A stretch of DNA of 64,000 nucleotides, from positions 7,554-71,553 of the forward strand of contig DDXV01000020.1 of assembly GCA_002347815.1 (NCBI GenBank). Reading direction: 5' to 3'. This DNA is from Syntrophaceae bacterium UBA2251. Lineage in GTDB: Bacteria; Desulfobacterota; Syntrophia; Syntrophales; UBA2251. Positions 6,475-55,255 of this stretch are shown here, piece after piece. Under the pieces are notes generated by a model that searched no databases, had not been told where the DNA came from, and saw nothing but the letters and a program-made list of their open reading frames with translations. Numbering within the stretch: position 1 is the first letter of the stretch; each line of letters begins with the position of its first letter. The position numbers and the translations under genes are program-made.

Positions 6475-7212
6475 ATGAAGAAAACGGCGAAAAGATTCTT
6501 GGCGGGGGTCGGCATCGTCCTGGTTTTGGTCATCCTGGCCTTGGGCGGGTATCTCGTCAAGATGAACATGGAAACGCGGAAGATGACGCCGTCGGCCACC
6601 GGGGAGATCACGGCCGGCGTGTATGCCGTCCGGGATTCCTACGTCAATCTTTTCCTGATCAAAGGCGCGGACGGATATATCGCCGTCGATGCGGGCAACA
6701 GCCTGAAGCGGGTCCGGCAGGAGATGCAGATCCTGTCCATAGACCCGTCAAAGGTGACGGCCGTCTTTTTGACGCACACCGATTTCGATCATGTGGCCGC
6801 ACTGGACCTGTTTCCCCAAGCCACGATTTACCTCTCGAAGGCCGAGGAGCAGATGATCAACGGGACGACGCCCCGTTTTGTCGTCATCCACAACCCGAAG
6901 ATCCCCCGTTACGCGCTGCTGGACGACGGTCAAACCATCGATGTTTCCGGGCGGAGCGTGCGGGGCATTGCCACGCCCGGCCACACCCCCGGCGCCATGA
7001 GCTACGTCGTCGACGGGGCCTACCTGTTTGTCGGCGATACGATGAGCCTGAAAAACGGGAAAGCCGGTTTATTTAATGAATTTTTCAACATGGATTCGGC
7101 CACGCAGGAAGCATCCATCCGAAAGCTGGCCGCTCTGAAAAATCCGAAATTTGTATTCACCGCCCACTATGGATTCACGGACGATGCCGCTCGAGCGTTC
7201 GGCGATCGCTGA
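6475..7212 (+). CDS. MBL-fold metallo-hydrolase, N-terminally membrane-anchored or secreted
   Basis: ATG at 6475 follows GGGAGGGGG. There is an N-terminal hydrophobic helix (FLAGVGIVLVLVILALGG), then LTHTDFDHV (an HxHxDH-like motif) and GHTPG. Confidence 0.85.
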   Translation: MKKTAKRFLAGVGIVLVLVILALGGYLVKMNMETRKMTPSATGEITAGVYAVRDSYVNLFLIKGADGYIAVDAGNSLKRVRQEMQILSIDPSKVTAVFLTHTDFDHVAALDLFPQATIYLSKAEEQMINGTTPRFVVIHNPKIPRYALLDDGQTIDVSGRSVRGIATPGHTPGAMSYVVDGAYLFVGDTMSLKNGKAGLFNEFFNMDSATQEASIRKLAALKNPKFVFTAHYGFTDDAARAFGDR

Positions 7213-7340
7213 CGGCCGTCGCGCCGGAATGACGGAATGAGCGCGGCCGCGGTCCGGCGTCCCCGGGGATTCCCCGGGGCGGTGTATGGCGGAAACGTGC
7301 CTGAACCGCCAGGGCCTTGAAACGGGCAGGGGAGGCGTCC

Positions 7341-7805
7341 ATGAACCCGGATGACATGCAGGAAAAGGCGGCCAGGCTGTTTGGGGTCCGATTGCATTGA
7401 AGCCAGGCGATTCTTGCGGTCGGGCAGGAAAAACTGGGGATAGAGGATGAGAATCTGATCCGGGCCATGGATCCTTTCGGGGGCGGGTTGGATGGGCATG
7501 GAGAAACCTGCGGGATCGTCATCGGCGGACTGGCCGCCATCGGTTTGCGATTCGGGCGTTCAAAACCCGGCCAGGAGGCCGATATCAGGATGAGGGAATG
7601 CTCGCGCCTGTTCGTGAGGCGCTTCCGGGACGAAGTGGCGGACGGCAAAATCCTGTGTCGCGACATCACCGGGGTTGACTGGCGCGATCCCGTTCAGGTA
7701 AAGAGCTTCCGGGAAGGCGGAGGACGTGATGCGTGTCAGGCCCTGATCGGCAAGACCGCCAAGATCCTCGGCGAGATATTGGAGCGCTCCTGCCCGGAGA
7801 CCTAG
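7341..7805 (+). CDS. C_GCAxxG_C_C family redox protein, candidate selenoprotein (in-frame TGA at 7398-7400)
   Basis: The track reports only 7467-7805. The same frame reads MNPDDMQEKAARLFGVRLH-TGA-SQAILAVGQEKLGIEDENLIRA upstream, from the ATG at 7341 (GGGGAGG RBS). The TGA sits where the family has its first invariant Cys (..NC[AS]QA[VI]L..). The other three Cys are present (GETCG, ILCRD, DACQA). Confidence 0.65.
7402..7425 (+). promoter_or_regulatory. candidate bacterial SECIS-like hairpin downstream of the TGA
   Basis: GCC-[AGG bulge]-CGAUU-(CUUGC loop)-GGUCG-GGC begins 2 nt after UGA, and the apical loop lies about 13-17 nt downstream. An alternative 9-bp helix (7388-7396 with 7415-7423) would enclose the UGA. 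Folded by hand only. Confidence 0.3.
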
Positions 7806-8001
7806 ACGACCCCGCGGATAGGCCCGGGATAGACTTAACGGGCCACGCCATCCCCCCGACAGCCCCCATGTTCATCGCCCCCTCCCCGGCGCCATCCCCG
7901 GATGGCGCATCGGCGCCCCTCCCCAGCTGGCAAAGGGGGTGAGAGACGGTCGGGCCGATTCTCGAAGACAAGGAAGGCGGGCGAAGCCCGCCCATGACGT
8001 T

Positions 8002-9462
8002 TTGAAGGCCGCCGTGCAGGATTTCACCGAAGGCGATATTGGCAGGCAAGTCATCAGTTTCAGCGCGCCGATCATGTTCGGCAATCTGCTGCTGTCCCTT
8101 TACGGGATCATCAACATGATCTGGGTGGGGAGACTCCTGGGTCATCAGGCCGTGGCCGCCATCTCGGCCTCTCTGCCCATCGTCATGCTCATGCCCGCGT
8201 TTTTGATCGGCCTGGGGATGGCGACCAATGTCCTCATCGCGCAGGCATTCGGCCGCCGGGACACGGCGATGCTGAAAAAGATCCTGGCGAATTCCTTTAT
8301 CGCCTCGATGTCGTTCTGCCTGATGATCTCCCTGATCGGGCTCCTGTTCCGGCGTCAGTTGCTGGACTGGGTCAATGCGCCGCAGGAGATCCAAGGCATG
8401 GCGCTGTCCTACCTGACCATCATCATGGCGACGCTGGTCTTCCAGTTCTTCATCAACTGGATGAACGGCATGCTTCGCGGTCTGGGAGACGCCACCACCG
8501 TCGTGAAGATCCTCATCTTGCTCGCGGCATTCAACATCGTGTTCGTTCCGCTGTTCATTCGCGGCATCGGACCCCTGCCCCCGCTCGGCGTGGCCGGGGC
8601 GGCGTGGGGCACGGCGCTGGCCGCCGTGTCGACCTGCGTCATCGGCTATCTTTATCTTCTGCGCTTCAATCCCTACGTCGATATGCAAAACTGGGACTAC
8701 CGATTGGATTGGCGGATCATCCGCGAAGTTTTCGTCATCGGCGTTCCCGCCTCGCTGCAGATGATGGTCGTCTCTCTGGCCGGCGTGATCATCATCTCCC
8801 TGGTCAACCGTTACGGCACGACGGTGACCGCCGCCTTCGGCATCGGCATGCAGATCGATATGCTGGCCACCATCCCCTTCATGTCCATCGGGATGGCGGT
8901 GACCACGATCGCCGGTCACAATCTGGGCGCGAGGAAACTGGACCGCGTCTTCCAGACCCTGCGCGTCTCGGTCTGGCTCGGCCTGCTCGTGGCGTTTGCC
9001 TGCACGGCCGTGCTCTTGATTTTTCCCCACGACATCGGGGCCATCTTCCTCAAGGAATCGCTGGAAAAGGCCCGCGTGCTGGAAACGGTCCGCGATTATT
9101 ATCGGTGGATGGCCTTTATCTTCCCCTGCTTCGCCGTCATCTTCGCCATCCAGGGCGTCTTGCGCAGCGCGGGCGATACCCTGGCCTTGATGGGGCTGTC
9201 GTTCATCGCCATGTTCGTCATCCGCATTCCGCTTGCCTATTTCCTGGCCGGCCCCGTGGGGTTGAAGCAGGACGGCATCTGGATGGCGATGCTTTTAAGC
9301 AACGCGCTGGCCGTCAGCTTGAACTGGCTGTACTTCAAGCATGGCCCGTGGAAGAAGCGGCGGATCCTGGGAGATCGACGCAAACGCTCGCCGGAAGAAA
9401 GGGTGGAAGTCCCTGGCCGCGCCCCTACTTCCGCCAGAAACCGGGCATCAGGAGGACGATGA
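8002..9462 (+). CDS. MATE family efflux transporter (start uncertain: 7939 GTG, 8002 TTG or 8014 GTG)
   Basis: ..FTEGDIGRQVISFSAPIMFGNLLLSLYGIINMIWVGRLLG.. is a typical MATE N-terminus, and the protein has about 12 TM segments. The first 20 codons of the track ORF overlap a GC hairpin and look non-coding. Confidence 0.85.
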   Translation: MKAAVQDFTEGDIGRQVISFSAPIMFGNLLLSLYGIINMIWVGRLLGHQAVAAISASLPIVMLMPAFLIGLGMATNVLIAQAFGRRDTAMLKKILANSFIASMSFCLMISLIGLLFRRQLLDWVNAPQEIQGMALSYLTIIMATLVFQFFINWMNGMLRGLGDATTVVKILILLAAFNIVFVPLFIRGIGPLPPLGVAGAAWGTALAAVSTCVIGYLYLLRFNPYVDMQNWDYRLDWRIIREVFVIGVPASLQMMVVSLAGVIIISLVNRYGTTVTAAFGIGMQIDMLATIPFMSIGMAVTTIAGHNLGARKLDRVFQTLRVSVWLGLLVAFACTAVLLIFPHDIGAIFLKESLEKARVLETVRDYYRWMAFIFPCFAVIFAIQGVLRSAGDTLALMGLSFIAMFVIRIPLAYFLAGPVGLKQDGIWMAMLLSNALAVSLNWLYFKHGPWKKRRILGDRRKRSPEERVEVPGRAPTSARNRASGGR

Positions 9463-10876
9463 TCGTGTAGATCTCCAGCCGGCCCAGCAGCATGCAGGCG
9501 ATCATGATCCACTTGCCCGGCAGGGGCACGCCGGAAAAGTTGTCCATCGGCCCGATGCTGCCCAGGCCGGGCCCCACGTTGCCCAGACAGGTCGCCGCTC
9601 CCGAGATCGAGGACATCATGTCCATGCCCAGCGCCGCGAGGGCCATTGTGGCCAGGATGAAAATGCCGACATAAAGCATGAAGAACCCCCAGATGCTCCG
9701 CATGATTGTCTGAGGAACCGGCGTCCGCCCCAGCTTGACCACCGTGACGGCATGGGGATGAATGATCCGGAGGACTTCCAGGTAGCAGTGCTTGGCCAGA
9801 AGAACGACGCGCACGATCTTGATCCCTCCGCCCGTCGATCCGGCCATGCTGCCCAGGAACATGCAGAGCAGAAGAACCTGTTGGGAGAGCGCCGGCCACG
9901 CCTCGAAATCGGTCGTGACGAATCCCGTCGTGGTCATGAGGGAGACCACCGAAAAGGTCGCATGGCGAAAGGCTTCGAAAACCGTCGGATAGACCTTTCC
10001 CCCGTAGACGTCGAGGACGACGATCAGGATAAGCGCCCCGGTGATGAGCAGGTAGGAACGGAACTCCGGATCACGGAGAAATTCCCGCATCCGGCCGTGG
10101 ACGAGCTTGTAGTGAAGCGAAAAATTGATTCCAGCGATGAACATGAAACCGATGACGACGAATTCGACATACGCGCTGTGATAATGGCCGACGCTCGCGT
10201 TGTTCGTCGAAAATCCGCCCGTGGGCATGGTGGTGAAGGCGTGGCAGACGGAATCGAACCAGGACAGGCCTCCGAAAAGCAGGAGCACGATCTGCATGAC
10301 CGTCAGGAACAGGTAGATTTTCCAGAGCGTCCGGGCGGTGTCGGAAATTCGCGGGGTCAGCTTGTCCACGACGGGACTGGGGGTTTCAGCCTTGTAGAGC
10401 TGCATGCCGCCGACGCCGAGGAAGGGCAGGATGGCGATCGACAGAACGATGATGCCCATGCCCCCCAGCCATTGGGTCTGCGCGCGCCAGAAGAGAATGC
10501 CCCTGGGCAGGTGTTCGACATCCTTCAGGATGCTTGCGCCGGTGGTCGTAAATCCTGAAATGCATTCAAAATAGGCGTCTGTCAAATCGGGAATGGCCCC
10601 CGAAAGAAGATAGGGCAGGGTCGCCACGAGACCGGCGGCGATCCATCCCAGGGTGACGATGGCCACACCGTCCCGGTGACTCAACGCGTAGTCCTCCTGG
10701 CCCCGGCTCCACAGGAAAACCCCGCCTCCGAGGCCGCAGGTTGCGATCAGCGAGAGGAGAATGGCGAGGGCGCTGCCGTCCCCGTAGTAAAGCGCAACCA
10801 GCAGGGGCGCCGTCATGGACAGGCCGATGTAGAAGACGAGGACCGCGACCAGATAGGCGATCAAGCGGAAATTCAT
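9425..10876 (-). CDS. trkH: Trk-type K+ uptake protein TrkH
   Basis: 483-aa polytopic protein with TrkH/KtrB-like repeated pore motifs (e.g. GFTTTGAS, TTGF, TGG). Its start overlaps the trkA stop by 1 nt (TAATG). Confidence 0.9.
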   Translation of the reverse strand: MNFRLIAYLVAVLVFYIGLSMTAPLLVALYYGDGSALAILLSLIATCGLGGGVFLWSRGQEDYALSHRDGVAIVTLGWIAAGLVATLPYLLSGAIPDLTDAYFECISGFTTTGASILKDVEHLPRGILFWRAQTQWLGGMGIIVLSIAILPFLGVGGMQLYKAETPSPVVDKLTPRISDTARTLWKIYLFLTVMQIVLLLFGGLSWFDSVCHAFTTMPTGGFSTNNASVGHYHSAYVEFVVIGFMFIAGINFSLHYKLVHGRMREFLRDPEFRSYLLITGALILIVVLDVYGGKVYPTVFEAFRHATFSVVSLMTTTGFVTTDFEAWPALSQQVLLLCMFLGSMAGSTGGGIKIVRVVLLAKHCYLEVLRIIHPHAVTVVKLGRTPVPQTIMRSIWGFFMLYVGIFILATMALAALGMDMMSSISGAATCLGNVGPGLGSIGPMDNFSGVPLPGKWIMIACMLLGRLEIYTIIVLLMPGFWRK

Positions 10877-12234
10877 TAAAAATACTCCAGCTTGACGGTC
10901 AGGAGCTCTTCGATCTTCTTCGAGACCTGCTGCAGGGCGAAGATGATCAGCCGGTCGCGAGGCCGGATGATCGTGTCACCGCTGGGAATGATGATTTCGT
11001 CGCCGCGGACGATGGCCCCCAGAATCGCCCCCGGGGGGAAGGGAACCTGGGACAGCGGGGTGTTGACGATGTCCGACGTTTCGAGCGCTTCCGCTTCGAT
11101 GGCCTCGGCCGCCTCTTCCCGGAGAGGGGCCACGGAGATGATGCGGCCCCGGCGGATGTACTGGAGAATCGCGCGGACCGCCGCCATGCGGGGATTGATG
11201 ACCGTGTCCAGACCGATGGCCGACACGATGTGCATGTAGCTCAGCTTGCTGACCCGGGTGATGGTGCGCCGGGTCCCCAGCTCCTTGGCGAGCAGGGAGA
11301 TGAGGACGTTGCTCTCCTCGTCGCCGGTCAAGGCGATGAGCAGATCCATGTCGCCGGCGTTTTCCTCCCGGAGCAGGTCCCGGTCGGCGCCGTCTCCTCG
11401 AATCACGATCGCCCGGTCCAGAACGGTCGCCAGCTTCTTGCACTTCTCCCCGTCCTGGTCGATGATCTTGACGTTCATGCGACGCCGGTCGAGGGCCTTG
11501 GCGACGGCCATGCCGGTTTCCCCAGCCCCGACGATGAGGACGTTTTTCAGGGGGCGGGTCGGAATGTCGAGCCGGTCGAGCGTGGGGTTGACCTCCGCCC
11601 GTTTCATCACCAGATAGACGAGATCCATGGGCTGGATGATATCGCGGCCGCTGGGGATCAGGATCTTGTGGCCCCGGACGATGGCGCCGACGAGCAGGTT
11701 GCCCTCGTACGCCTTCAGGTCGGTCAGCCGCTTCCCGGCCAGGGGAGACTCGGCGGTGATGAGGAAGCTGACCAGCTTGACCTCGCCGCCCACGAAGTCG
11801 ATCACCTCCGAGGCGCCCGGCACCTCCATGAGGCCGAGAATCGTGTCCACCATCATGGCGTTCGTATTGATGATCAGGTCCACCCCGAGGAGATCCCGAC
11901 TGAAGAGGGATGATTCACCGAGATACTCCGGGTTCTTGACCCGCGCGACCTTGACCATGTGCGGGTTGAGACTGCGGGCCAGAAGGCAGGCAATCAGGTT
12001 GACCTCGTCGCTGTCCGTGGCCGCCGCCAGAAGCTCCGCTTCCTGAACCCCGGCGGCGCGAAGCGTCTGGGGACTCGTGCCGGAGCCGAGAAATGCCTGT
12101 ACGTCGAGATTCTCGCTGATCCGGCGGATTTTGGCGGGATCCTGGTCGATCAGGACGACCTCCTGACTTTCATCGGAGAGCTTCTTGGCGATATGGTACC
12201 CGACTTCTCCCGCGCCGATGATGATCACTCGCAT
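10876..12234 (-). CDS. trkA: Trk system K+ uptake protein TrkA (double RCK/NAD-binding)
   Basis: MRVIIIGAGEVGYHIAKKL plus a second Rossmann motif VLIVGAGETGMAVAKAL. The length (452 aa) and the two-RCK architecture match TrkA. Confidence 0.92.
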   Translation of the reverse strand: MRVIIIGAGEVGYHIAKKLSDESQEVVLIDQDPAKIRRISENLDVQAFLGSGTSPQTLRAAGVQEAELLAAATDSDEVNLIACLLARSLNPHMVKVARVKNPEYLGESSLFSRDLLGVDLIINTNAMMVDTILGLMEVPGASEVIDFVGGEVKLVSFLITAESPLAGKRLTDLKAYEGNLLVGAIVRGHKILIPSGRDIIQPMDLVYLVMKRAEVNPTLDRLDIPTRPLKNVLIVGAGETGMAVAKALDRRRMNVKIIDQDGEKCKKLATVLDRAIVIRGDGADRDLLREENAGDMDLLIALTGDEESNVLISLLAKELGTRRTITRVSKLSYMHIVSAIGLDTVINPRMAAVRAILQYIRRGRIISVAPLREEAAEAIEAEALETSDIVNTPLSQVPFPPGAILGAIVRGDEIIIPSGDTIIRPRDRLIIFALQQVSKKIEELLTVKLEYF

Positions 12235-13568: not shown

Positions 13569-13598
13569 TTGACAAACACCCCCGATCTTTTCTAAGGT
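13569..13598 (+). promoter_or_regulatory. sigma70-like promoter candidate for the riboswitch-btuCD transcript
   Basis: TTGACA (13569-13574), an 18-nt spacer, then TAAGGT (13593-13598). This would start transcription just before riboswitch P1. Confidence 0.35.
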
Positions 13599-13604
13599 CA
13601 GTCC

Positions 13605-13765
13605 GTCTCAAACGGATGGATGTGAGGAAGAGGGGTGAGAAGCCCCCGCTGCCCCGCAGCCGTGAAGGGAACGAACGCCCAGGACGCCACTGTCGCCGGT
13701 CAACGGCGATGGGAAGGCGGGCCAGTAGGTCGCCCGAAGCCGGAAGACCGGTCCATCCGCAAGTC
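13605..13765 (+). ncRNA. cobalamin (B12) riboswitch
   Basis: P1 pairs GGATGGA (13614-13620) with TCCATCC (13752-13758). The core has GGGTGAGAAGCCC, GCCACTG, GGGAAGGC and the B12 box AGCCGGAAGACCGG. A GAGGGAGG SD and the GTG start of the permease follow directly. Confidence 0.85.
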
Positions 13766-13783
13766 CTCGAGGGAGGCCTCCGC

Positions 13784-14818
13784 GTGCGACCGACCGTCCA
13801 TCCCATTGTCACCCCGTTCCGGGTTCTCCGTATCAGCGGCATCCTGTTTCTGATCTGTCTGGCCGTCTTCATCGGGTCGCTCTTCGCCGGTCCGGGACAG
13901 GTCGGGGTGCGCACCCTGCTCTCCTCGCTCCTCTCGTTGGGGTCCGGATCGTATGCCGGCGACGCCGATGCGGGGCAGACCATCCTTCTGTCCCTCCGGA
14001 TTCCCCGTCTTCTCTTCGCGGGGATCGTCGGGGCCGCCCTGTCCGTGTCGGGGGTCGTCTTTCAGGCGCTGTTACGCAACCCGCTCGCCGACCCCTATAT
14101 CCTCGGCATCTCGGGGGGCGCCGCCGTGGGGGCGATCGCCGGGATCCTGCTCGGCGCGGCGGCCGTTCCTTTCGGCGTCCCCGGCCTCGCCTTCGTCGGG
14201 GCGCTGACGACCCTGCTCGCGGTCTTTGCCGTGGCCGGCGCCGGACGGGACCTCCGTTCCCACACCCTGCTTCTGGCCGGGGTCATCGTCAACGCCTTCT
14301 TCAACGCCGTCATCATGTTTCTCCTCGCCGTCAGCAGTTCGGGCGACCTCCACAGCATCATGTTCTGGCTCATGGGGGATTTGAGCCTCGCCCGGGGACG
14401 GGACATCCTGTCCGTCGGCGCGGCGCTCGTCGTGGGCTTCTCCGTGATCTGCCTGTACGCGCGTCCGCTCAACCTGATCGTGACGGGGGAGGAGACGGCC
14501 CGCACCCTGGGCGTCGAACCGGCGACCGCGAAGCGGATCCTCCTCGTCGTGACCTCGCTCATGACCGGGCTGGCCGTTTCGGTGAGCGGCACGATCGGTT
14601 TCGTAGGCCTGATGGTGCCGCACCTGATGCGGATGGCCCTCGGTCCGGATCACCGGCTGCTGCTGCCCGCCTCCCTCTTTTTCGGGGCGGCCTTTCTCAT
14701 CCTGGCCGACACGCTCGCCCGGACGCTGCTCGCCCCGATGGAGCTGCCCGTGGGCGTGGTCACGGCCCTGTGCGGGGCGCCCTATTTCATCTATCTTCTG
14801 AGGAGGATGAACGATTAA
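13784..14818 (+). CDS. FecCD/BtuC-type ABC permease (corrinoid/iron-complex importer)
   Basis: GTG at 13784 sits after GAGGGAGG. The 344-aa polytopic protein has a typical FecCD family end (...LCGAPYFIYLLRR). The track ORF's first 56 codons are actually the riboswitch. Confidence 0.88.
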   Translation: MRPTVHPIVTPFRVLRISGILFLICLAVFIGSLFAGPGQVGVRTLLSSLLSLGSGSYAGDADAGQTILLSLRIPRLLFAGIVGAALSVSGVVFQALLRNPLADPYILGISGGAAVGAIAGILLGAAAVPFGVPGLAFVGALTTLLAVFAVAGAGRDLRSHTLLLAGVIVNAFFNAVIMFLLAVSSSGDLHSIMFWLMGDLSLARGRDILSVGAALVVGFSVICLYARPLNLIVTGEETARTLGVEPATAKRILLVVTSLMTGLAVSVSGTIGFVGLMVPHLMRMALGPDHRLLLPASLFFGAAFLILADTLARTLLAPMELPVGVVTALCGAPYFIYLLRRMND

Positions 14819-15626
14819 CGCCGTTCTGGACATCGACCGGGTCCGCTTCCGCTACGCCGGAGACTGGGTGCTGACGGACGTCGCCTTTGCCGTGGCCGCC
14901 GGCGCGTTTCTGGGGATCATCGGCCCCAACGGCTCCGGGAAGACGACCCTGCTCAAGGTGATGAACGGCCTTCTCCGCCCCCAGGCGGGCGCGGTCCGGT
15001 TGAACGGCCGCCCCCTGGCCGGGATGCGGCGCCGCGAGGTGGCGCGGGTGATGGCCGTCGTCCCCCAGGACGCGGCGCTGCTCTTCACCTTCACCGTGGA
15101 GGAGATGGTCCTGATGGGGCGATCGCCGCACCTGGGCCGCTTTGGGTTCGAGGGGATGGGGGACTTCCGGATCGCCCGCGCGGCCATGGACCGGACCGGC
15201 GTCCTCGCCCTGGCGCACCGGCCCTATGACACCCTGAGCGGGGGCGAGAAGCAGCGGGTCCTGATCGCCCGCGCCCTGGCGCAGGAACCGCGGATTCTCC
15301 TCCTCGACGAGCCGACGGCGTATCTCGACATCCGCCATCAGGCGGGGATCTTCGACCTGATGAAGGACCTGAACCGCCGGCAGGGCCTCACGGTCGTCGC
15401 CGTCACCCACGACATCAACCTGGCCGCCCTCTACAGCGACGAGGTCCTGCTTCTGGCCGACGGGCGCGTCTTCGGCGCCGGACCGCCGGAGGCGGTCGTC
15501 ACCGCGGAAAACATCCGCGGGGCGTATGGCATCGGCGTCCTCGTGGATTCCCATCCGGCGACAGGCCTGCCCCGGGTCACGCCGGCCGGGTATGCCGGGG
15601 GCGGAGGACCCGATCCGGCGCCCTGA
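14814..15626 (+). CDS. ABC transporter ATP-binding protein (BtuD/FepC type); probable non-canonical ATT start
   Basis: Walker [10 protein letters not shown], signature LSGGEKQR, Walker B LLLDEP. The conserved first beta-strand ([14 protein letters not shown]) lies upstream of the track's GTG at 14868. It is bounded by a stop at 14808, and AGGAGG lies 7 nt before ATT 14814. Confidence 0.8.
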
Positions 15627-15719
15627 AAGGCGCGATCCTTATTCATCCGGTTTTCCGGGTGCGAAATGGTTTTGCGAGGTTGGGCGAGTGGGCGCCGCAC
15701 GCGCGTGCACTCGATTCTT

Positions 15720-15875
15720 GAACGTCCTGCGGCAGGGAGGAAGCCGGTGCGAATCCGGCGCTGCCCCGCAACTGTAAGTGGAACGACCTCCGCACGAGGC
15801 CACGGGTTCGCGGTTGAACCCGGAAGGCGCGGACAGTAGGACGCCACGAGCCAGGAGACGCCGCCGCAGGCCAGC
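15720..15875 (+). ncRNA. cobalamin (B12) riboswitch
   Basis: P1 pairs CCTGCGGC (15726-15733) with GCCGCAGG (15863-15870). The core has GGAAGCCGGTGCGAATCCGGCGCTGCCCCGCAACTGTAA, GCCACGG, GGAAGGC and the B12 box AGCCAGGAGACGCCGCC. Confidence 0.88.
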
Positions 15876-15912
15876 GACTCGATTCCCGCGGGGGAAGAAG
15901 GGAGTGGGCAGG

Positions 15913-18000
15913 ATGCACAGAGGCAAGCGTGTTTTAGAGGTATTTGTACTGGTCGTGACGATATTGCTGTTTCCGATGATCGTTTTCTGCGATCCCGGAA
16001 AGTCGGACCAGGAGAGTTTCTCCACATTGGGTGAGGTCGTGGTCACGGCGACGCGCGACCACGAAAATGTCCAACAGGTTCCGGCGAATGTTTCCATCGT
16101 TACCGCCAGGGAGATCGAGCGGTCAGGCGCGGCCAATCTTGTCGAGGTGCTGGAAAGACTGGAGGGTGTTCCATTCCGGAACTACGGCGGCAACGCGGCC
16201 CAGTCTGTTATCGACCTGCGGGGGTTCGGCGGGGACAACCCATTCGGGAAGACCCTGATTCTGCTCGATGGCCGCCGCCTGAACCGGCCCGACATGTCCT
16301 CCATCAATTGGCTTCAGATCCCCCTGAGTCAGATCGAGCGGATCGAGGTGGTCCGGGGTGCCGGGAGCGTTCTTTACGGCGATGCGGCCGTCGGCGGCGT
16401 GATCAACATCATCACGAAAAAGGGCCGGGGCGCGCCCCGGTACCGGGGCGCCGTTGAGGCAGGCAGCTTCGGCTTCCACCGGGAACAGGCGGGAGTCGCC
16501 GGCGCCGTTGGCAAGGCGCGCTACGCGCTGAGCGGCGAAAACAGTGTCCAGGAGGGCTGGCGGGACCGGTCGCGACTCTCGTCGCGGGGAGGGACGGTGG
16601 ATCTGGGATATGCGGCCGGAGAACGCCTCGACGTGTCGCTGACGGCTTCCTTCAACCGTACAGATTACCAGATGCCCGGCGCGCTGACGAAGGCCCAGAT
16701 GAAGCGGAATCGGCGCCAGTATCAGCCGGCCACGCCCGAGAACTGGGCGAACGCCGCCCCGGACGACGACGGTTTGGACCGTTACGTCAACGTCCATGCG
16801 GGACTGACGTCATTTCTGGGCCAAGCGGGCGAGTTCGACCTCCAGGTCCTGTACGGAAAGAAGGAACTGGAGGTCAACATGCCATCCTGGACGGCGGGCC
16901 AATATGCGGACATCGATACGGACACCTTCGGGGTCACGCCTAAATACGTCCTGGCACGGGACCTCTTTGGGTGCGGAAACAAACTGACGCTGGGAGTGGA
17001 TTATTACCGCGAACCTTACAAAAAAATATTTTTCGGCACGCGAAATCGCCGCGAGAAAACCCGTTGGGCGGACCTGATGCGGGAGAGCCTTGGGTACTAC
17101 GCCCGGGATGAGTTCCGCCTCATGAAGCGCCTCTTGCTGAGCACGGGGTATCGGTCGGAACGGACCGTCATCGAAGGGGAGGCCACAGACCGAATTGCGC
17201 CGGCCAACGATTTCCGCGATCGCGAGAAGTCCTATCGTGCCGAGGCCTATGAGGTGGGGCTGACTTGGCTTGCCGGCGAGGAATCGAAGATCTTTGCCAA
17301 GGTCGCCTCGGTTTACCGCATCCCGTTTCTCGACGAGGTTGCCTCGTTCAATGGCTTCGGCGGCGGCTTCCTACAGGATCTCGACCGGGAAAAGGGCGTC
17401 AGTCTGGAGGCGGGGGCGGTGCTCCATCCGCTGGATCGCCTGAAGATCGGGCTGACTCTCTTCCGCATCGACATGGAGGACGAGATCCAGTACGTCTACG
17501 TCACTTCCTGGTCCGGGTACAACCAGAACGTCGGAAAGACGCGGCACGATGGCGCCGAGGTCTCCCTGTCCTGGCTGTGGGAAAAGCGCATGCGGGTCCA
17601 CGGGACCATCACCTGGCACCGGGCTACCTTTGAAAACGGTCCCAACAAGGGGAAGGACATGCCTCTCGTTCCCCGCTGGCTGGCCAGCGCCGGTGCCGAG
17701 ATCGAACTGACGCACGGCTGGACCCTGCGACCCGAGGTACGACATGCGAGTCGCGCCTATCTCTCAGGGGACAACGACAACAACACCGAGCGACTGGATG
17801 CCTACACCCTTTTGAATCTGTATCTTTCTTGGCACACGTCGTTAGGGAAACTCAAAACGACGGCGTTTGTCGGCGTGGAAAATCTGGTCGACGTGAAATA
17901 CGCCTCCTTCGGTTCGGACAACCTCTCGTGGGGCGGCGTCAACACATACTACCCCATGCCGGGGATCGCCTTCAAGGGGGGGCTGTCCCTGGAATATTAG
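15913..18000 (+). CDS. TonB-dependent outer-membrane receptor (BtuB-like, riboswitch-controlled)
   Basis: ATG at 15913, a signal peptide, a TonB-box/plug region (LGEVVVTATRD...VSIVTAREIERSGA...LRGFGG) and a C-terminal beta-barrel ending GLSLEY. Confidence 0.9.
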   Translation: MHRGKRVLEVFVLVVTILLFPMIVFCDPGKSDQESFSTLGEVVVTATRDHENVQQVPANVSIVTAREIERSGAANLVEVLERLEGVPFRNYGGNAAQSVIDLRGFGGDNPFGKTLILLDGRRLNRPDMSSINWLQIPLSQIERIEVVRGAGSVLYGDAAVGGVINIITKKGRGAPRYRGAVEAGSFGFHREQAGVAGAVGKARYALSGENSVQEGWRDRSRLSSRGGTVDLGYAAGERLDVSLTASFNRTDYQMPGALTKAQMKRNRRQYQPATPENWANAAPDDDGLDRYVNVHAGLTSFLGQAGEFDLQVLYGKKELEVNMPSWTAGQYADIDTDTFGVTPKYVLARDLFGCGNKLTLGVDYYREPYKKIFFGTRNRREKTRWADLMRESLGYYARDEFRLMKRLLLSTGYRSERTVIEGEATDRIAPANDFRDREKSYRAEAYEVGLTWLAGEESKIFAKVASVYRIPFLDEVASFNGFGGGFLQDLDREKGVSLEAGAVLHPLDRLKIGLTLFRIDMEDEIQYVYVTSWSGYNQNVGKTRHDGAEVSLSWLWEKRMRVHGTITWHRATFENGPNKGKDMPLVPRWLASAGAEIELTHGWTLRPEVRHASRAYLSGDNDNNTERLDAYTLLNLYLSWHTSLGKLKTTAFVGVENLVDVKYASFGSDNLSWGGVNTYYPMPGIAFKGGLSLEY

Positions 18001-21514: not shown

Positions 21515-23122
21515 ATGAAAATCAAGTTCATGGGGGCAGCGCGGACGGTGACCGGTTCGTGCTTCATCGTCGAGGCGGCGGGTCACCGCTTTGCCATCGA
21601 CTGCGGCATGCATCAGGGCAATGCCGAAATCGACCAGCGCAACTGGGAGGTGGACCTCTACGATCCGGCCGGGATCGAGTTCTTCATCATCACGCACGCC
21701 CACATCGACCACTCGGGGCTGATCCCCCGGATGGTGCAGAAGGGGTTCCGAGGGCGGATCTACATGACGCCCCCGACGAAGGAGCTCCTCCAGGTGATGC
21801 TTCTGGACAGCGCCCACATCCAGGAGACGGAGGCCCAGTGGAAGACGAAAAAGCGCCTGCGGCACGGGGACAAGCGCACCCAGGCCCTCTATACCCAGAA
21901 AGACGCCCAGGCGTCCTTTCCCCTGTTCGATGCCGTTCCCTACGAGCACGAGTTCAGCCCCGGCGACGGGATCAAGGTCAGACTGCGCGACGCCGGCCAC
22001 ATTCTCGGGGCGGCCCTGGCGGAGCTCTGGATCCAGGAAAACGGCGCGACGTCCAAGCTCGTCTTCTCCGGCGACCTCGGCCGCCCGTCCCAGCTTATGA
22101 TGCGGGACCCCAGCGTCGTGGAAGAGGCGGACATCCTTTTTCTGGAGTCCACCTACGGGAACCGGAACCACAAAAACGAGGACGCCAGCCTCGACGAACT
22201 CGCCCAAGCCGTGGCCTACAGCTATGAACGGGGAGAGAAGGTGATCATTCCGGCCTTCGCCGTGGAGCGGACCCAGGAGATGATCTATTCCCTGCACCTC
22301 CTGGAAAAGAGCGGCCGATTGCCCAAGGACATGCCCGTTTTCGTGGACAGTCCGCTCGCCATCGCGGCCACGGAGATCTTCCGTCGCTACAAGAAGGATT
22401 TCGACGCGGAGGCAAAGGCGCTGCTCGCCAAGGGCGAAGATCCGCTGACGCTGCCCGGCCTGCGCTATACCCAGAACACCCAAGACTCGATGAACATCAA
22501 CGCCGTCGCCGGTCCCGCGATCGTGATCTCCGCGAGCGGCATGGCCGATGCGGGCCGGATCAAGCACCACCTGCGACACAACCTCTGGCGGGAGGGGGCG
22601 AGCGTCGTCTTCGTCGGCTTCCAGGCGGCGGGGACGACCGGCCGGCGGATCATCGACGGGGCGGAGAAGGTGCGGCTCTTCGGCGAGGACGTGGCCGTCA
22701 AGGCGAAGGTCTTCACGATCAACGGCTTTTCCGCGCACGCCGGCCAGACGCAGCTTCTCGACTGGCTGGCCCACTTCCGGAACCCGGCGCCGCAACTGTT
22801 CCTCGTCCACGGCGAATACACGGCCCAGCAGGTGCTGGCGGGCCTGGTCGAGGAGCGGTTCGGCATCAAGGCCGTCATCCCGGACTATCTGGAAGAGACC
22901 ATCCTCAAACCCGGCGAGGCGATCCAACGCGTGGCGTTTCCCGAGCAGGCCGCGCCCCGGATCGACTGGGCGTACCTCATCGCCGACGTGGAGGCGAAGC
23001 TGGCCCACCTGAAAGAACGACAGGCGAAGATCGAAGGCAAGACCTGGGTGGAACAGACGGACCTCCGGGATCGTCTGTTCGAAGTGAACCGGAGCCTGAT
23101 GCAGCTCATCTCGGAGAGCTGA
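21515..23122 (+). CDS. beta-CASP family MBL-fold RNA-metabolising nuclease
   Basis: MKIKFMGAARTVTGSCF..., the HAHIDHSG motif and a later beta-CASP region (ESTYGNRNH...GFSAHAG...LVHGE). Confidence 0.88.
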   Translation: MKIKFMGAARTVTGSCFIVEAAGHRFAIDCGMHQGNAEIDQRNWEVDLYDPAGIEFFIITHAHIDHSGLIPRMVQKGFRGRIYMTPPTKELLQVMLLDSAHIQETEAQWKTKKRLRHGDKRTQALYTQKDAQASFPLFDAVPYEHEFSPGDGIKVRLRDAGHILGAALAELWIQENGATSKLVFSGDLGRPSQLMMRDPSVVEEADILFLESTYGNRNHKNEDASLDELAQAVAYSYERGEKVIIPAFAVERTQEMIYSLHLLEKSGRLPKDMPVFVDSPLAIAATEIFRRYKKDFDAEAKALLAKGEDPLTLPGLRYTQNTQDSMNINAVAGPAIVISASGMADAGRIKHHLRHNLWREGASVVFVGFQAAGTTGRRIIDGAEKVRLFGEDVAVKAKVFTINGFSAHAGQTQLLDWLAHFRNPAPQLFLVHGEYTAQQVLAGLVEERFGIKAVIPDYLEETILKPGEAIQRVAFPEQAAPRIDWAYLIADVEAKLAHLKERQAKIEGKTWVEQTDLRDRLFEVNRSLMQLISES

Positions 23123-36659: not shown

Positions 36660-37030
36660 AAATGAGTGCAAAAGCGTTCGATCGGGCCGTCGCGCGCGCG
36701 GTGGACCGCATTCCGGCGGAGATCCGGGATCTGATGGAGAACGTCGTCGTCGCCGTCCGGAAGCGGCCGACGCAGGAAATGCTCGATGCGGTCGGGATGA
36801 CCGCGGACGACCCGCCCCTCGGCCTCTACTGGGGAGAATCCCTGCTCGAGCGTTCCAGCTTTTCGCCCGTCCAGTACCCGGACACGATCTTCGTCTTTCA
36901 GGAGCCGCTCGAAGCGATGTGCGAAACCCTCGCGGAGCTGGAGCGGGAGATCGAGATCACCGTCGTGCATGAGGTCGCCCATTTTCTCGGCATGGACGAG
37001 GATCGCCTGGCAGACCTGGGATACGCCTGA
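36656..37030 (+). CDS. zincin-like metallopeptidase family protein (DUF1025 type)
   Basis: The ATG at 36656 overlaps the tauE stop. C-terminal motif VVHEVAHFLGMDEDRLADLGY (HExxH). Confidence 0.8.
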   Translation: MKMSAKAFDRAVARAVDRIPAEIRDLMENVVVAVRKRPTQEMLDAVGMTADDPPLGLYWGESLLERSSFSPVQYPDTIFVFQEPLEAMCETLAELEREIEITVVHEVAHFLGMDEDRLADLGYA

Positions 37031-37049
37031 GGGGGTCGTGGCCGCGCGG

Positions 37050-39431
37050 TCACCGCTTGCCGGGGCCGCCGCCGCGCTTCCGCTTCCTTTCGATTTCCGC
37101 GATGGCCCTGCCCGCGGCCGCCTTCACCCGCGGGCCGTAGGCCCGGAGGCTCAGGATTCCGATCTGGCGCTGGATGGATGTCAGCGCCGGCAGGGCGGAT
37201 TCCTCGCCGATGGCCCCCAGCGCCGCGCAGATCTTTTCTTCCAGCTCTTCCCTGGCCGCCGAGGACTTGACGGGTTTCGCCTTCAGGAGATCGATCAAGA
37301 CGGGCACGGCCGGCGGATGGCGCAGGCTGCCCAGCAGGGGAACGATGTCGAGCTGGAGCGCTTCCCGCGCCTGGGGAAGGGTCTCCGTCAGGAGCGGACC
37401 CCGCTCGTCGCCGCCGATGCCGTTGATACTTTTCAGCGTCTCCTTCTGAACGCGCCGGTCGGCGTGGAGGAGCAGCGGCTGCAGGGCCCGGACGTGGATG
37501 TCCCTGCCGATCCGGCCCAGGAGCCGCGCCAGGTTCCGCTGGTAGTACCACACCCCGTCCTGACGGATGTTCGTGAGAACCGCGGAAAGGGCCAGGGTCC
37601 CCATGTCGTTGACGAGGTTCATGATCCGGATGCGTTCATCCGCGCTTTCGCTCTTCTGGAGCAGTTCCAGGAAGTGCTCCGCGGCCGGTTCCATGCGGAC
37701 GAGGAGACGGCCGGCCTCGTCGCTTTCGAGCAGGCCGCCGGCCTTGCTGCTCCGCTGATGATCCCGGGTCTGGAACATCTTGAACAGGATGTCGATCAGG
37801 TCCGCCTGCGAGAGGTCCCGCATGACGTCTTCCGCCAGTTGCTGGATCGTGTCGTTTCGCTCCAGCGCGCCGGTGTGAATCTGATGGAAGACCTTCACGA
37901 TCAAGCGGCAGGGGCTGAATCGTCGTTCCCGGATCAATCCCTGCCCCAGTTCCCCCAACTGTCGGCAGAGCTTCACGTAGGCGGGGGTGGCGGCGGTTTC
38001 CCTGCCGATCCACGCGGTGAGCTTTTCCAGATTCCGGACGACCGGTTCGTAACGATTTCCGGAGAGGAGCCCCGGAAGGATCCGGGACAGATCTTCCGCC
38101 GCCCGATCGCGGACGGTCGCCTCCCGGCTCGCGAGGTTCGAGAACACCTCGTCGAGGATCTCGCCGGCCCGCGCGCTTTCCCCGCGGGCATAAAGCAGCG
38201 CGATCCGTTCTACCGGGGACGCCTCGGGCGGGGCAGCGGGGGGAGCCGCCGCGGCGCCGCCCTTACGCTCCGTCGTAACGTCCCGGTCGGGGGCGCGGCC
38301 CCCGGTTGCCGGCTCATCCCGGACGGCCGTCCCGGCGGCCTCGATCGGGCGGTCCCGATCCGCGGCGTCGCCCTGCGGGGCTGCGCCATCCGTTGTCCCG
38401 GCCTGTTCGTGCAGCCGGATCATCGTTTCCAGCTCGGCGACCTGTCGCCGGAAGACCCCGGTGTTCCGCCCTCGTGGGGCCTTCCCCTCCTGCGGGTGCG
38501 TCGCGGCCGGCGGTCCCGCGGGCGCTTCCCCCGTGTCCAGTTTGCCTATGTCCGGGGCGGCTTCCGGCCCGGTCGCGGTCTTGTCCCCGTCCACGAGGTC
38601 GCGGATCTGCCGGTGGAGGCGCTCCTCGAAGCGGCTTTCCGCGCTGCGGGACAGCAGGGCGCCGACCAGGCCGGAGTCCAGTTTGGCGACGAACCGCGCG
38701 ATCAGAAGCGACAGCTTTTCCGTTTCGGCGGATTCGGCCGTGCGGTTCAGCGCGCCCATCACGGCAACGAGACGGTCCGAAAATTCGCCCGGCGGCACGG
38801 CCGTCCCCCGGGAGGCGATCTCGGCGAGACCGGCCTGCAGGACCTTCGCGATCCTTTCGGGATCGCGGGCCATCTCCCGGATCCGGTCCGGGTCGAGCGC
38901 CGCGCCGCCCTCCGCGCCGAGGAGATATGCAACGACCGGGTCGTCTTTCGTCCCGCCGTCCGCGGAAACCGGCCGATCCGCGTCCGTGACGACGTAGACC
39001 TTCTCGCCCAGACGAATGTGCGGGAGGTCCTGCGCCTCCAAGACACTCCGTATCCCGCCCCGCTCCGCCAGTGCCTCCGGCTTTTCCGACAGGATCTGCA
39101 GAAAGGCCAGGAGTTCGTCCCTCTCCAGCCCCCGGGAGAGGGTGAGATAGCGGATGCCGGCGTTCATCAGGAGCCGGAGAAAGGCGGCGACCTGGGGCCG
39201 TTCCTGGTCTTTCGGGCCCAGGGGCGTTCCGTTGACGAGGAGGGTTTTTTCCGCTTCGGCGAAAACCACCTCCCCGCCCTCTTCCAGAACCTGCCCCAGG
39301 GTTCGATGAAGCTTTTCCAGGGTGTTCTGGATCATGGCGCTCGTGGGCGGATAGAGGCGCAGATTGGTCAGGGCGGTATTGATGGCGATGAGGATCTCGA
39401 TCGTCCGGTTCGCGGGGCTTCCGTCTGGCAT
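37050..39431 (-). CDS. HEAT-repeat domain protein with disordered Pro/Ala/Gly-rich centre
   Basis: 793 aa. The N-terminal domain is ILIAINTALTNLRLYPPTSAMIQNTLEKL... C-terminal HEAT/PBS-lyase-like repeats are present (VRALQPLLLHADRRVQKETLKSI, AVPVLIDLLK, ICAALGAIGEESALPAL). Confidence 0.75.
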   Translation of the reverse strand: MPDGSPANRTIEILIAINTALTNLRLYPPTSAMIQNTLEKLHRTLGQVLEEGGEVVFAEAEKTLLVNGTPLGPKDQERPQVAAFLRLLMNAGIRYLTLSRGLERDELLAFLQILSEKPEALAERGGIRSVLEAQDLPHIRLGEKVYVVTDADRPVSADGGTKDDPVVAYLLGAEGGAALDPDRIREMARDPERIAKVLQAGLAEIASRGTAVPPGEFSDRLVAVMGALNRTAESAETEKLSLLIARFVAKLDSGLVGALLSRSAESRFEERLHRQIRDLVDGDKTATGPEAAPDIGKLDTGEAPAGPPAATHPQEGKAPRGRNTGVFRRQVAELETMIRLHEQAGTTDGAAPQGDAADRDRPIEAAGTAVRDEPATGGRAPDRDVTTERKGGAAAAPPAAPPEASPVERIALLYARGESARAGEILDEVFSNLASREATVRDRAAEDLSRILPGLLSGNRYEPVVRNLEKLTAWIGRETAATPAYVKLCRQLGELGQGLIRERRFSPCRLIVKVFHQIHTGALERNDTIQQLAEDVMRDLSQADLIDILFKMFQTRDHQRSSKAGGLLESDEAGRLLVRMEPAAEHFLELLQKSESADERIRIMNLVNDMGTLALSAVLTNIRQDGVWYYQRNLARLLGRIGRDIHVRALQPLLLHADRRVQKETLKSINGIGGDERGPLLTETLPQAREALQLDIVPLLGSLRHPPAVPVLIDLLKAKPVKSSAAREELEEKICAALGAIGEESALPALTSIQRQIGILSLRAYGPRVKAAAGRAIAEIERKRKRGGGPGKR

Positions 39432-39566
39432 GTCCCTTTCCTTTCACACGCACCCGGTGCGCGCGGGGCGCAAAGGTCGCCCCGGGTTCCGGGCTCCGCG
39501 AGATCTTACGGTAAACGCGGGCGGCTGTCAACGACAAGGGGGCTCGCGGGGCCGGGGGAAGCGGGA

Positions 39567-40118
39567 TCATTCCTTCAGACGGTATTGAAAGCGGGCGACG
39601 ATGTTGAGCCGGTCGAGCCGGAACGGCCGGGGGAGGGGCCCGAACGGCGAAGAGGCCCGGATGACGTCCAGGGCGGCGCGGTCGAGCAGCTCCGAGCCGG
39701 CGGAGGTCACCACGTCCGCCCCGGCGAGGCCGCCGTTCGCGGCGATGGAAAAACGGACCACGGTCTCCCCCTCGTGGCCGCGGGAGGCGGCTTCGGGGGG
39801 GTAGGTCCAGCGCCGGTTGATCCGGTACTTGACCTTGAGCAGATAGGGCGTGTAGGGGCTGTCCGGGTTCTCCAGGGCGACGGTGTCCTCCTGCGGAACG
39901 GGGGGAAGGGCCGCCGGCGTCGCGGGAGCGGCGGCGGCCGCGGGCGGTTTCGCCGCCGGTTCCTCCGTTGCCTTCTCCGGTTCCTTCAGGCTGACCGTGA
40001 GCGGTTTCGGGTCCCGGCGTTCCCCGTTCATGTCGATGAATCCCGTGAGCGACAGGACGACCGCGTGGGCAAAGATCGACGCCAGGATGGCCAGGACGAG
40101 GAATTTTCTGGAGGTCAT
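39567..40118 (-). CDS. TonB-family energy transducer
   Basis: An N-terminal TM anchor, a Pro/Ala-rich spacer (EEPAAKPPAAAAAPATPAALPPVPQ) and a TonB_C domain (YPPEAASRGHEGETVVRFSIAANG). Confidence 0.85.
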   Translation of the reverse strand: MTSRKFLVLAILASIFAHAVVLSLTGFIDMNGERRDPKPLTVSLKEPEKATEEPAAKPPAAAAAPATPAALPPVPQEDTVALENPDSPYTPYLLKVKYRINRRWTYPPEAASRGHEGETVVRFSIAANGGLAGADVVTSAGSELLDRAALDVIRASSPFGPLPRPFRLDRLNIVARFQYRLKE

Positions 40119-40275
40119 GGGCCCGCTCCGTTGAGGTGCGGGAACTATAGCAGAGATGGGGCAGGAATCAACGGGAAATGCGCGCGGATTCTCCTTGATT
40201 ATCGGGTGAGGCCGTTGTACACAGCACCGGTCCGCTGAAAAACCGTCCGACCATCACGCACCGGAGACACGATCC

Positions 40276-42287: not shown

Positions 42288-42382
42288 GGAGAGATACCGA
42301 AGTGGTCGTAACGGGATCGACTCGAAATCGATTTGGGGGCCACAAAGCTCCCACGGGGGTTCGAATCCCCCTCTCTCCGCCA
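42288..42382 (+). tRNA. tRNA-Ser (anticodon CGA), CCA encoded
   Basis: Acceptor GGAGAGA/TCTCTCC, anticodon loop CTCGAAA, long variable arm, T-loop GGTTCGAATCC. Confidence 0.93.
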
Positions 42383-42395
42383 GGAATACCCCGCC

Positions 42396-42489
42396 GGAGA
42401 GATGCCTGAGAGGCCGAAAGGGCACGACTGGAAATCGTGTGTATGCCCACAAAGGTGTACCGCGGGTTCGAATCCCGCTCTCTCCGCCA
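42396..42489 (+). tRNA. tRNA-Ser (anticodon GGA), CCA encoded
   Basis: Acceptor GGAGAGA/TCTCTCC, anticodon loop CTGGAAA, long variable arm, T-loop GGTTCGAATCC. Confidence 0.93.
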
Positions 42490-42531
42490 GACATATCGAC
42501 AGCGGCCCGCCGGGCGCTGTCGCCGTTTGAT

Positions 42532-42626
42532 GGCCGGGTCCCGTGCAACAGCGGGTTGTGAACCCCGTCAGGTCCGGAAGGAAGCAGCGGTAACAATCCC
42601 CGTTGTGTGCCGCGGGTAACCCGGCC
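42532..42626 (+). ncRNA. ffs: signal recognition particle RNA (small/4.5S type)
   Basis: Contains the invariant helix-8 motif GTCAGGTCCGGAAGGAAGCAGC. The terminal helix pairs GGCCGGGT with ACCCGGCC. It sits in the conserved position upstream of dnaX. Confidence 0.88.
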
Positions 42627-42655
42627 GTCTTTAATCCAAGAAGAACGGGGAAACG

Positions 42656-44350: not shown

Positions 44351-44392
44351 TCGCGGGCTGGACGACGTCAAGACATCAAGGAGGTCGGTTCA

Positions 44393-44707
44393 TTGTCACA
44401 CAACATCGGTAACATCATGAAACAGGCCAAAAAGCTCCAGGAGCGCATGGGCCAGCTCCAGGCGGAGATGGAACAGAAGACCGTCACCGCCACGTCCGGC
44501 GGCGGAATGGTGACCGTGACGGTCAGCGGCAAGGGCGAACTCGTCTCCCTCAAGATCGAACGGGACGTGGTCAATGCCGAGGACGTGGAGATGCTCCAGG
44601 ACCTGATCCTGGCGGCGGTCAACGAGGGGGTCCGCAAGGCCCAGGAGATGGCCCGGTCGGAGATGATGAAAATCACGGGCGGCCTGAACATCCCCGGACT
44701 GACGTGA
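44393..44707 (+). CDS. ybaB: nucleoid-associated protein YbaB/EbfC
   Basis: [22 protein letters not shown]...[11 protein letters not shown] is the family pattern. 104 aa. Confidence 0.93.
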
Positions 44708-44717
44708 GGGGGATGCC

Positions 44718-46773: not shown

Positions 46774-47008
46774 CCCGCAACCGCCCGTCCGGAACATTCC
46801 GCGCTTCCGGACCCGGTTTCCCGGACCGCAAATATCCGTTGACAAGCGGGGAAGAATATAATAGCGAACAACCCTTATTTGTCGGGCATGTCCATGAATG
46901 CGATGTCGGAAATACAGGCGACCCCACCCTCCTTCCCGTCTTGCGGGGGGATCCAAGGATGGGGCCTCTGTTTATGAGTTGCAGGATTCCAATCGGGGAG
47001 AAAAGCCA

Positions 47009-47554: not shown

Positions 47555-47578
47555 TCCTATTGAGATCGAGGTATCCAC

Positions 47579-47869: not shown

Positions 47870-47872
47870 GGC

Positions 47873-55246: not shown

Positions 55247-55255
55247 AGAGGGAAC

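Follow-up and report, generated by a model that had tools for sequence, protein, structure and literature searches.

Whether a small gene stops at an in-frame TGA codon or continues through it as selenocysteine (Sec) is the question raised by a locus near the start of a 64-kb stretch of contig DDXV01000020.1 from Syntrophaceae bacterium UBA2251 (the whole stretch is referred to as the window hereafter). Gene callers report at this locus a 112-amino-acid (aa) open reading frame (ORF) that belongs to the C-GCAxxG-C-C family. In the same frame, the raw sequence carries an ATG at 7341 followed by 19 sense codons, the TGA at 7398-7400, and 22 further sense codons that lead into the ATG at 7467, from which the frame stays open to the TAG at 7803-7805. 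Translated conceptually from the raw sequence, the product reads MNPDDMQEKAARLFGVRLH-U-SQAILAVGQEKLG..., ends in ...RSCPET, contains a single Sec, and has no CxxCH motif. The initial annotation had put forward both this anatomy, including the GGGGAGG run ahead of ATG 7341, and this conceptual product, and we recovered them unchanged. As argued below from comparative sequence data, 7341-7805 very probably constitutes a single gene, from a Syntrophales bacterium, that encodes a C-GCAxxG-C-C selenoprotein of 154 residues (Table 1).

Family membership of the product was examined with profile searches in which Cys was substituted for Sec at residue 20. The full-length product matched PF09719 (C_GCAxxG_C_C) at 85.2 bits over profile positions 2 to 118 of 118 (cutoff, 27), and the annotated 112-aa ORF alone matched it at 58.1 bits over positions 27 to 118. 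Since the match grows from 27-118 to 2-118, the 112-aa ORF begins in the middle of the domain, as had been supposed from its sequence at the outset. TIGR01909 was likewise matched by the full-length product (51.6 bits versus a cutoff of 47.4; profile positions 2 to 120 of 120). Four conserved Cys positions of the family are represented in the product by U20 (the TGA), C57, C106, and C132, all of which lie in invariant or nearly invariant columns (alignments A1, A3, and A5). The motif at the second position reads C57-G-I-V-I-G62 in the window protein, with Ile replacing the Ala found in relatives (CGAVIG or CGALAG), and both G58 and G62 are invariant. The Sec column itself holds Cys without exception in Cys-type members drawn from across the phylogeny, and the full-length Cys homologues read ...FHCSQA[IV]LAVGQEKLG... 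around it, one of them being P0034 (...FHCSQAILAVGQEKLG). Thus, the TGA does occupy the column of the first invariant Cys, with the other three Cys retained, as was first proposed. The family is large, with at least 7,957 clusters at an E value of ≤1e-10 in a profile search of 5.8 billion proteins, archaea included.

To place the TGA among relatives, one genome per GTDB species was scanned, which yielded 80 related loci, mostly from metagenome-assembled genomes (MAGs) of Syntrophales, Syntrophaceae, and Smithellaceae. Across these loci and the window, the column contains TGA in 37 cases, TGC in 32, and TGT in 12, and neither TAA nor TAG was found; the first Cys is the only Sec position among the 81 loci. 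The 36 other assemblies carrying TGA at this column span 45 to 91% protein identity, and the closest of them, L002, is 91% identical to and syntenic with the window and shares the same TGA and the hairpin that follows it. These data bear directly on a sequencing or assembly error in which the true codon would be TGC or TGT. TGA is one base from either codon, and the window probably comes from a MAG; however, the syntenic locus has the identical TGA and hairpin, TGA stands at the column in 35 further independent assemblies from different studies, and it co-occurs with a hairpin that is absent from the Cys loci. We therefore regard such an error as next to impossible.

The sequence on both sides of the TGA also behaves as protein-coding sequence. 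In 30 of 30 close TGA loci, the TGA is preceded by an ATG at a distance of exactly 19 codons, and in the 29 of these that are distinct, the ATG follows a Shine-Dalgarno-like stretch rich in purines (GGAGG or nearly so). Over the 19 upstream codons, pairwise identity among the close TGA loci was 0.685, 0.714, and 0.47 at the first, second, and third codon positions, respectively, the third being the most variable. From the TGA to ATG 7467, the 22 intervening codons show strong conservation at the protein level, and their third positions vary outside the hairpin. Downstream of the TGA, the ORF is intact over 127 to 143 codons in all TGA loci except L054. Thus, either TGA or a Cys codon (TGC or TGT) is found at the same site in orthologues whose flanking protein sequence is conserved on both sides.

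These features were weighed against a pseudogene, in which a nonsense mutation would have turned TGC or TGT into TGA, or in which the N-terminal part has decayed and only the 112-aa ORF from ATG 7467 is expressed. Such a reading has in its favor that gene callers and all public records give only truncated products of 101 to 131 aa and that the related locus L054 looks decayed. Nevertheless, the same column is TGA in 36 other assemblies over the wide range of protein identity given above and never TAA or TAG, and the ATG, the Shine-Dalgarno run, and the 19 upstream codons are all kept as coding sequence. The 22 codons that follow the TGA, with their conserved protein and variable third positions outside the hairpin, speak the same way, and a 112-aa product would be devoid of helices 1 to 3 and of one of the four invariant Cys of a confidently modeled compact domain. 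We consider a pseudogene extremely unlikely. The initial annotation had itself named decay and a base-call error as possibilities, and the other TGA-bearing assemblies, with ORFs intact except in L054, effectively exclude both. L054 (L054:3001-3446) is the second copy in its MAG, the other being L008. It has both the TGA and a selenocysteine insertion sequence (SECIS), but an early in-frame stop comes 72 codons past the TGA, and the length of its match is not divisible by three; it probably represents an assembly error or a paralogue undergoing decay.

The hairpin that follows the UGA was then compared with the bacterial SECIS (bSECIS) consensus, which specifies a loop of 3 to 9 nucleotides (nt), an upper stem of 4 to 16 bp, a G in the first two loop positions (usually G[G/U]), a UGA-to-loop distance of 16 to 37 nt, and a minimum free energy (MFE) of ≤−7.5 kcal/mol (PMC13188914). 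The window hairpin agrees with it in every respect, with a 6-nt loop (GGUCGG), a 7-bp stem, 17 nt between the UGA and the loop, and an MFE of −15.0 to −16.5 kcal/mol, the lower value being that of the fold of 7398-7460. A SECIS candidate close after the TGA had been anticipated in the initial annotation, and that much stood, but its coordinates, 7402-7425, did not, the conserved structure being 7411-7430 (7403-7437 when extended). The hairpin at 7402-7425 is a weaker alternative fold (GCC.GGCxxU with the loop UCUU); in the window it contains mismatches, and its loop is devoid of G, for which reason its coordinates are to be replaced; the GCC.GGCxxU fold is the MFE structure in two loci only (L011 and L027).

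A hairpin of the 7411-7430 type is present in nearly all TGA loci. In contrast, the Cys loci encode a near-identical peptide (AVGQEK) with varied synonymous codons and show no consistent fold. For codons +5 to +8, with the same amino acid kept, synonymous-codon entropy was 0.00 to 0.34 bits in the TGA loci versus 1.23 to 1.81 bits in the Cys loci, and it reached 1.5 to 2.2 bits at flanking codons within the TGA loci. Third-position identity was 0.815 within the hairpin versus 0.40 to 0.47 in the flanks, and pairing was kept in 90.9% of cells versus 37 to 64% when the partners were slid. The frequent changes in the 3′ arm are only A or G opposite U, giving U-A or U-G, such that pairing is kept. 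These data support a SECIS that is under RNA-level constraint in the TGA loci only.

Some results count against the selenoprotein interpretation. The fold energy of the SECIS region is only moderately better than that of dinucleotide shuffles (z = −1.6 to −2.2). Classical covariation is nearly nil, as a single pair changed on both sides and the covariation score equaled that of shuffles; since the hairpin is nearly invariant, almost no compensatory change was available. Covariation thus lends no support, and the case from RNA is built on conservation that is confined to the TGA loci. Furthermore, no selA, selB, selD, or tRNA-Sec was found in the 64-kb window with ARAGORN, Rfam, and NCBIfam/Pfam (about 60 ORFs), although their absence from 64 kb of a multi-megabase genome is uninformative. 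With no sel genes in the window, Sec decoding in its own genome is assumed from the lineage; Syntrophus aciditrophicus, the cultured reference of the order, has 19 selenoproteins, including SelD (PMC1794560).

The absence of Sec machinery from the window would also agree with a UGA that is recoded but not as Sec, either by hairpin-stimulated near-cognate insertion of Trp or Cys or under a reassigned code, and a protein of the same clade, P0005, is recorded in JGI with Trp at the Sec column. Nonetheless, TGA is an ordinary stop codon in 24 of the 38 family-confirmed genes of the window, in which it is the commonest stop, so the genetic code is taken to be standard and the recoding local. Moreover, the column alternates only with Cys codons, which is the classical signature of Sec; the loop sequence and spacing of the hairpin match the SelB-type bSECIS consensus; and the order is rich in selenoproteins and the family is curated as a selenoprotein family. 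Recoding to an amino acid other than Sec is thus very unlikely. P0005 (JGI sample 3300075153, 975-bp contig) is a full-length member of the Sec clade (…GMQWSQAVLAVGQEKLG…), and its Trp could stem from a genuine TGG codon or from a pipeline that applied an alternative code to a TGA. A scan of TGA-interrupted frames revealed no other selenoprotein gene of this kind in the window: six other read-through candidates proved to be adjacent genes of different families sharing a frame or shadow ORFs, and the shared frame of dnaX and ybaB across a TGA is a matter of simple adjacency.

Returning to Sec at residue 20, we propose the following course of decoding. Translation would initiate at ATG 7341. At 7398-7400, the ribosome would not stop, because the hairpin just downstream of the UGA is proposed to act as a bacterial SECIS; by analogy with the established bacterial Sec pathway, it would recruit SelB-GTP-Sec-tRNA(Sec). 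Sec would then be inserted as residue 20, where the Cys-type members have the first of their four invariant Cys, and it may work together with Cys57, Cys106, and Cys132.

How does this gene compare with what has been described? The C-GCAxxG-C-C family was first predicted to be a selenoprotein family in 2007, as a "putative redox protein" of the Olavius algarvensis delta-1 symbiont with a predicted SECIS (Zhang and Gladyshev, PMC1976440), and it was included in a selenoprotein catalogue in 2022 (PMC9312934). A catalogue of 2026 divides it into two subfamilies by Sec position, form 1 (MGD8741185.1) and form 2 (WP_012158890.1) (PMC13188914), and the NCBIfam name of TIGR01909 is "C-GCAxxG-C-C family (seleno)protein." The question of novelty left open by the initial annotation is thereby answered: Sec-containing members of the family have been described since 2007. 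Neither the published descriptions nor the profile search of 5.8 billion proteins showed which of the two forms, if either, has Sec at the first Cys, and a position outside the two catalogued forms would be a smaller, alternative claim to novelty. Like the PF09719/TIGR01909 family, the window protein has a full-length domain with four Cys positions, one of which is UGA/Sec, and a bSECIS directly downstream, and like the catalogued members it belongs to a deltaproteobacterial (Thermodesulfobacteriota) host. Unlike them, the Syntrophales orthologue group carries no selenoprotein annotation in any database record examined.

Two curated relatives are homologous to the window protein over most of its length. 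The first is the DVU_1555 family C-GCAxxG-C-C protein (NF045669; E value, 9.6e-19), from whose members the window protein differs in scoring 67.5 bits against a cutoff of 103. The second is the HUGP/GUXX-star fusion selenoprotein (NF045501; E value, 2.2e-15), with 56.8 bits against a cutoff of 325 and a match confined to positions 8 to 144 of 236; the window protein, with its one Sec, does not have the C-terminal GUxx-stop module of that protein. With scores so far under the cutoffs, it belongs to neither subfamily. The name "HUGP," taken by itself, hints at a His-Sec dipeptide as in H19-U20 of the window protein. As for the hairpin, it lies in the coding region directly after the UGA, as in the Escherichia coli fdhF-type SECIS and the bSECIS model (Zhang and Gladyshev 2005 per PMC13188914). 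It further shares with the model a small apical loop starting with G-G-U, the spacing of 17 nt, and an MFE below −7.5 kcal/mol. The GGUC of the window loop is presumably also present in the fdhF SECIS loop, whereas the stem sequence of the window hairpin is unrelated to that of fdhF.

Public annotation has captured only fragments of this group. The exact 112-aa fragment is deposited in NCBI, JGI, ENA, and Logan as a "C_GCAxxG_C_C family probable redox protein," and in its 90%-identity cluster all 14 members are truncated, at 101 to 131 aa, which indicates that the Syntrophales orthologue group is systematically misannotated. As the fragments contain neither the three N-terminal helices nor the Sec site, selenoproteome counts of Syntrophales MAGs are underestimated. 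This systematic truncation in public annotation is new, in a modest sense, the selenoprotein status of the family being already known.

The history of the column was reconstructed from a rough neighbor-joining tree of 78 loci with Fitch parsimony, which gave at least six switches between Sec and Cys. Sec prevails in the Syntrophales-type clade, inside which a Cys-type Smithellaceae clade is nested. Several individual loci deserve mention. Within the Cys-type Smithellaceae clade, two nested TGA genes (L050:1419-1466 and L051:2110-2157) have a redesigned stem, GCGGC/GCCGC, under the same loop GGUCG, which suggests a reacquired or remodeled Sec site. A Desulfarculaceae MAG (L023:3058-3100) has TGC yet carries a near-intact SECIS, UUCUGGC-GGUCGG-GCAAGAA, and its nearest tree neighbor, L052, is a TGA locus; the gene appears to have been converted from Sec to Cys not long ago, with the SECIS left behind as a "fossil." Among more distant family members, TGA occurs at the first-Cys column in a Nitrospiraceae locus (L057:3037-3096), followed by an unrelated hairpin with the loop GGGGAU 23 nt after the UGA, and in a Dehalococcoidia locus (L056:1139-1198) with no convincing SECIS, whose Cys neighbor L065 has the same local hairpin.

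What, then, might the Sec do in the protein? A sequence search with the window protein alone found no solved homologue, and the fold was approached through P0034, the Cys homologue introduced above, which is 50% identical to the window protein. Its AlphaFold model is all-alpha (pLDDT, 94.4; pTM, 0.90), with the first Cys at the N terminus of helix 2 (H21-33) and residues 1 to 42 within the fold. The only significant PDB neighbor of the model is 1H21, the split-Soret cytochrome c of Desulfovibrio desulfuricans ATCC 27774 (Foldseek probability, 1.00; TMq, 0.62), the entry title of which begins "A novel iron centre...". The family profile also matched 1H21 (E value, 4.8e-6), with the GxxCGAxxG of the second Cys clearly aligned, so that the two proteins share both fold and profile match. 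However, 1H21 is a dihaem cytochrome of 247 residues that joins this domain to a haem-binding portion, whereas the window protein consists of the domain alone (154 residues), without CxxCH and with Sec in place of the first Cys. That the only solved relative of the fold is the iron-center domain of split-Soret cytochrome c is again new in a modest sense.

Because of this relative, the iron center of which is reportedly a [2Fe-2S] cluster on four Cys, we favor a role in metal binding. By this structural analogy, it is quite possible, if just short of probable, that Sec20 is one of four ligands of an iron or iron-sulfur center in a small electron-transfer or redox protein; more tentatively, Sec20 could be a direct selenolate ligand of a center homologous to the split-Soret "novel iron centre." Some points detract from this role. 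Only the second Cys is aligned clearly to 1H21, the helix with the fourth Cys falling in a weak 2.7-bit stretch. The gene neighbors in the window (an MBL-fold hydrolase, MatE, and TrkH/TrkA) include no conserved genes hinting at function; the MBL-fold and MatE genes are common only to the syntenic L002, and the neighborhood thus gives no functional hint.

The protein may instead be a selenoprotein in which Sec20 is a catalytic redox residue that forms a selenenylsulfide with one of the three Cys and binds no metal. The N terminus of a helix is a typical place for reactive Cys and Sec residues, and the first Cys has just that place in the P0034 model. Pfam and JGI label the family a "putative redox-active protein," and thiol-based redox chemistry is the use of Sec in most bacterial selenoproteins (PMC1976440). 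However, the protein has no CxxC/UxxC-type motif, its four Cys positions being 26 to 49 residues apart, and four invariant Cys in an all-alpha domain homologous to the iron-center domain of 1H21 fit a metal site better. We hold this catalytic role to be conceivable but rather doubtful, and we retain the iron or iron-sulfur ligand as the favored function.

Table 1. Coordinates of the selenoprotein gene and its elements in the window
Feature	Coordinates	Strand	Remarks
Shine-Dalgarno-like GGGGAGG	7329-7335	+	5 nt upstream of ATG 7341; read directly
Predicted full selenoprotein coding sequence, C-GCAxxG-C-C family	7341-7805	+	154 codons (M1...U20...T154) plus TAG 7803-7805
In-frame UGA, predicted selenocysteine, residue 20	7398-7400	+	First invariant Cys column; from the column census
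Putative bacterial SECIS element	7403-7437	+	Upper stem 7411-7417/7424-7430 (7 bp), loop GGUCGG 7418-7423, optional lower stem 7403-7406/7434-7437 (4 bp)
112-aa ORF reported by gene callers	7467-7805	+	C-terminal 73% of the protein; without helices 1-3 and the Sec/first-Cys site
Cys57 codon TGC, second family cysteine	7509-7511	+	C-G-[A/I]-x-x-G motif (CGIVIG); invariant column
Cys106 codon TGT, third family cysteine	7656-7658	+	Invariant column
Cys132 codon TGT, fourth family cysteine	7734-7736	+	Invariant or nearly invariant column

A scan of 7100-8000 for promoters and terminators found no element on the plus strand. On the minus strand, a strong terminator-like hairpin (7975-7993; 8 bp, 7 of them GC, then a T-rich tail) lies inside the 5′ end of the MatE ORF (7939-9462), and since it falls there, the MatE start may be downstream of 7993. 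Elsewhere, the window is rich in cation transport, with a complete kdpABC potassium-pump operon accompanied by the kdpD/kdpE two-component regulators (53501-61361, plus strand), TrkH/TrkA (9425-12234, minus strand), and an NhaA antiporter (3-977). A vitamin B12 uptake locus (13579-18000, plus strand) has two cobalamin riboswitches: the first (13579-13770; 69 bits) precedes a BtuC-like permease (13616-14818) and an ATP-binding cassette ATPase (14868-15626), and the second (15713-15882; 90 bits) precedes a TonB-dependent receptor (15778-18000). The ORF at 21515-23122 (plus strand) encodes a beta-CASP/metallo-beta-lactamase (MBL) nuclease whose best NCBIfam match, "type VII CRISPR-associated protein Cas14," scores 394.6 bits and falls well short of the cutoff of 800; with no CRISPR context noticed around it, the enzyme is probably an aCPSF1-like RNase of a generic kind. 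Two long ORFs overlap on opposite strands, 36969-40238 (plus strand; 1,089 aa) and 37050-39431 (minus strand; 793 aa), and only the latter has a Pfam match, a weak one to HEAT_2. A housekeeping cluster (42288-45317, plus strand) comprises two tRNA-Ser genes (CGA and GGA), the signal recognition particle RNA (42532-42629), dnaX, ybaB/ebfC, and recR. Pyruvate:ferredoxin oxidoreductase genes occupy 46898-52782 (plus strand), with porC-like 46898-47554, porA at 47873-49033, and porB at 49030-50004; downstream of porB are an ORF for a NuoF/GltD-like flavoprotein (within 49140-51956), a HoxU/NuoG-N-terminal-like iron-sulfur protein (52075-52782), and then tRNA-Asn.

The window gene leaves our understanding of Sec decoding itself unchanged. 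What the family gains is a clean pairing of well-populated clades, one with Sec (Syntrophales) and one with Cys (Smithellaceae), and the "fossil" SECIS in a Cys gene, together with the redesigned SECIS in a reconverted lineage, illustrates within a small set of loci how dynamic Sec/Cys evolution can be. From the link to the split-Soret iron center comes a testable hypothesis on the function of a family with over 7,900 sequence clusters. If the ligand role is true, the Syntrophales Sec clade and the related Smithellaceae Cys clade would constitute a natural selenium/sulfur ligand-swap series, one that would allow selenium tuning of a small iron-sulfur redox protein to be studied in syntrophic anaerobes.

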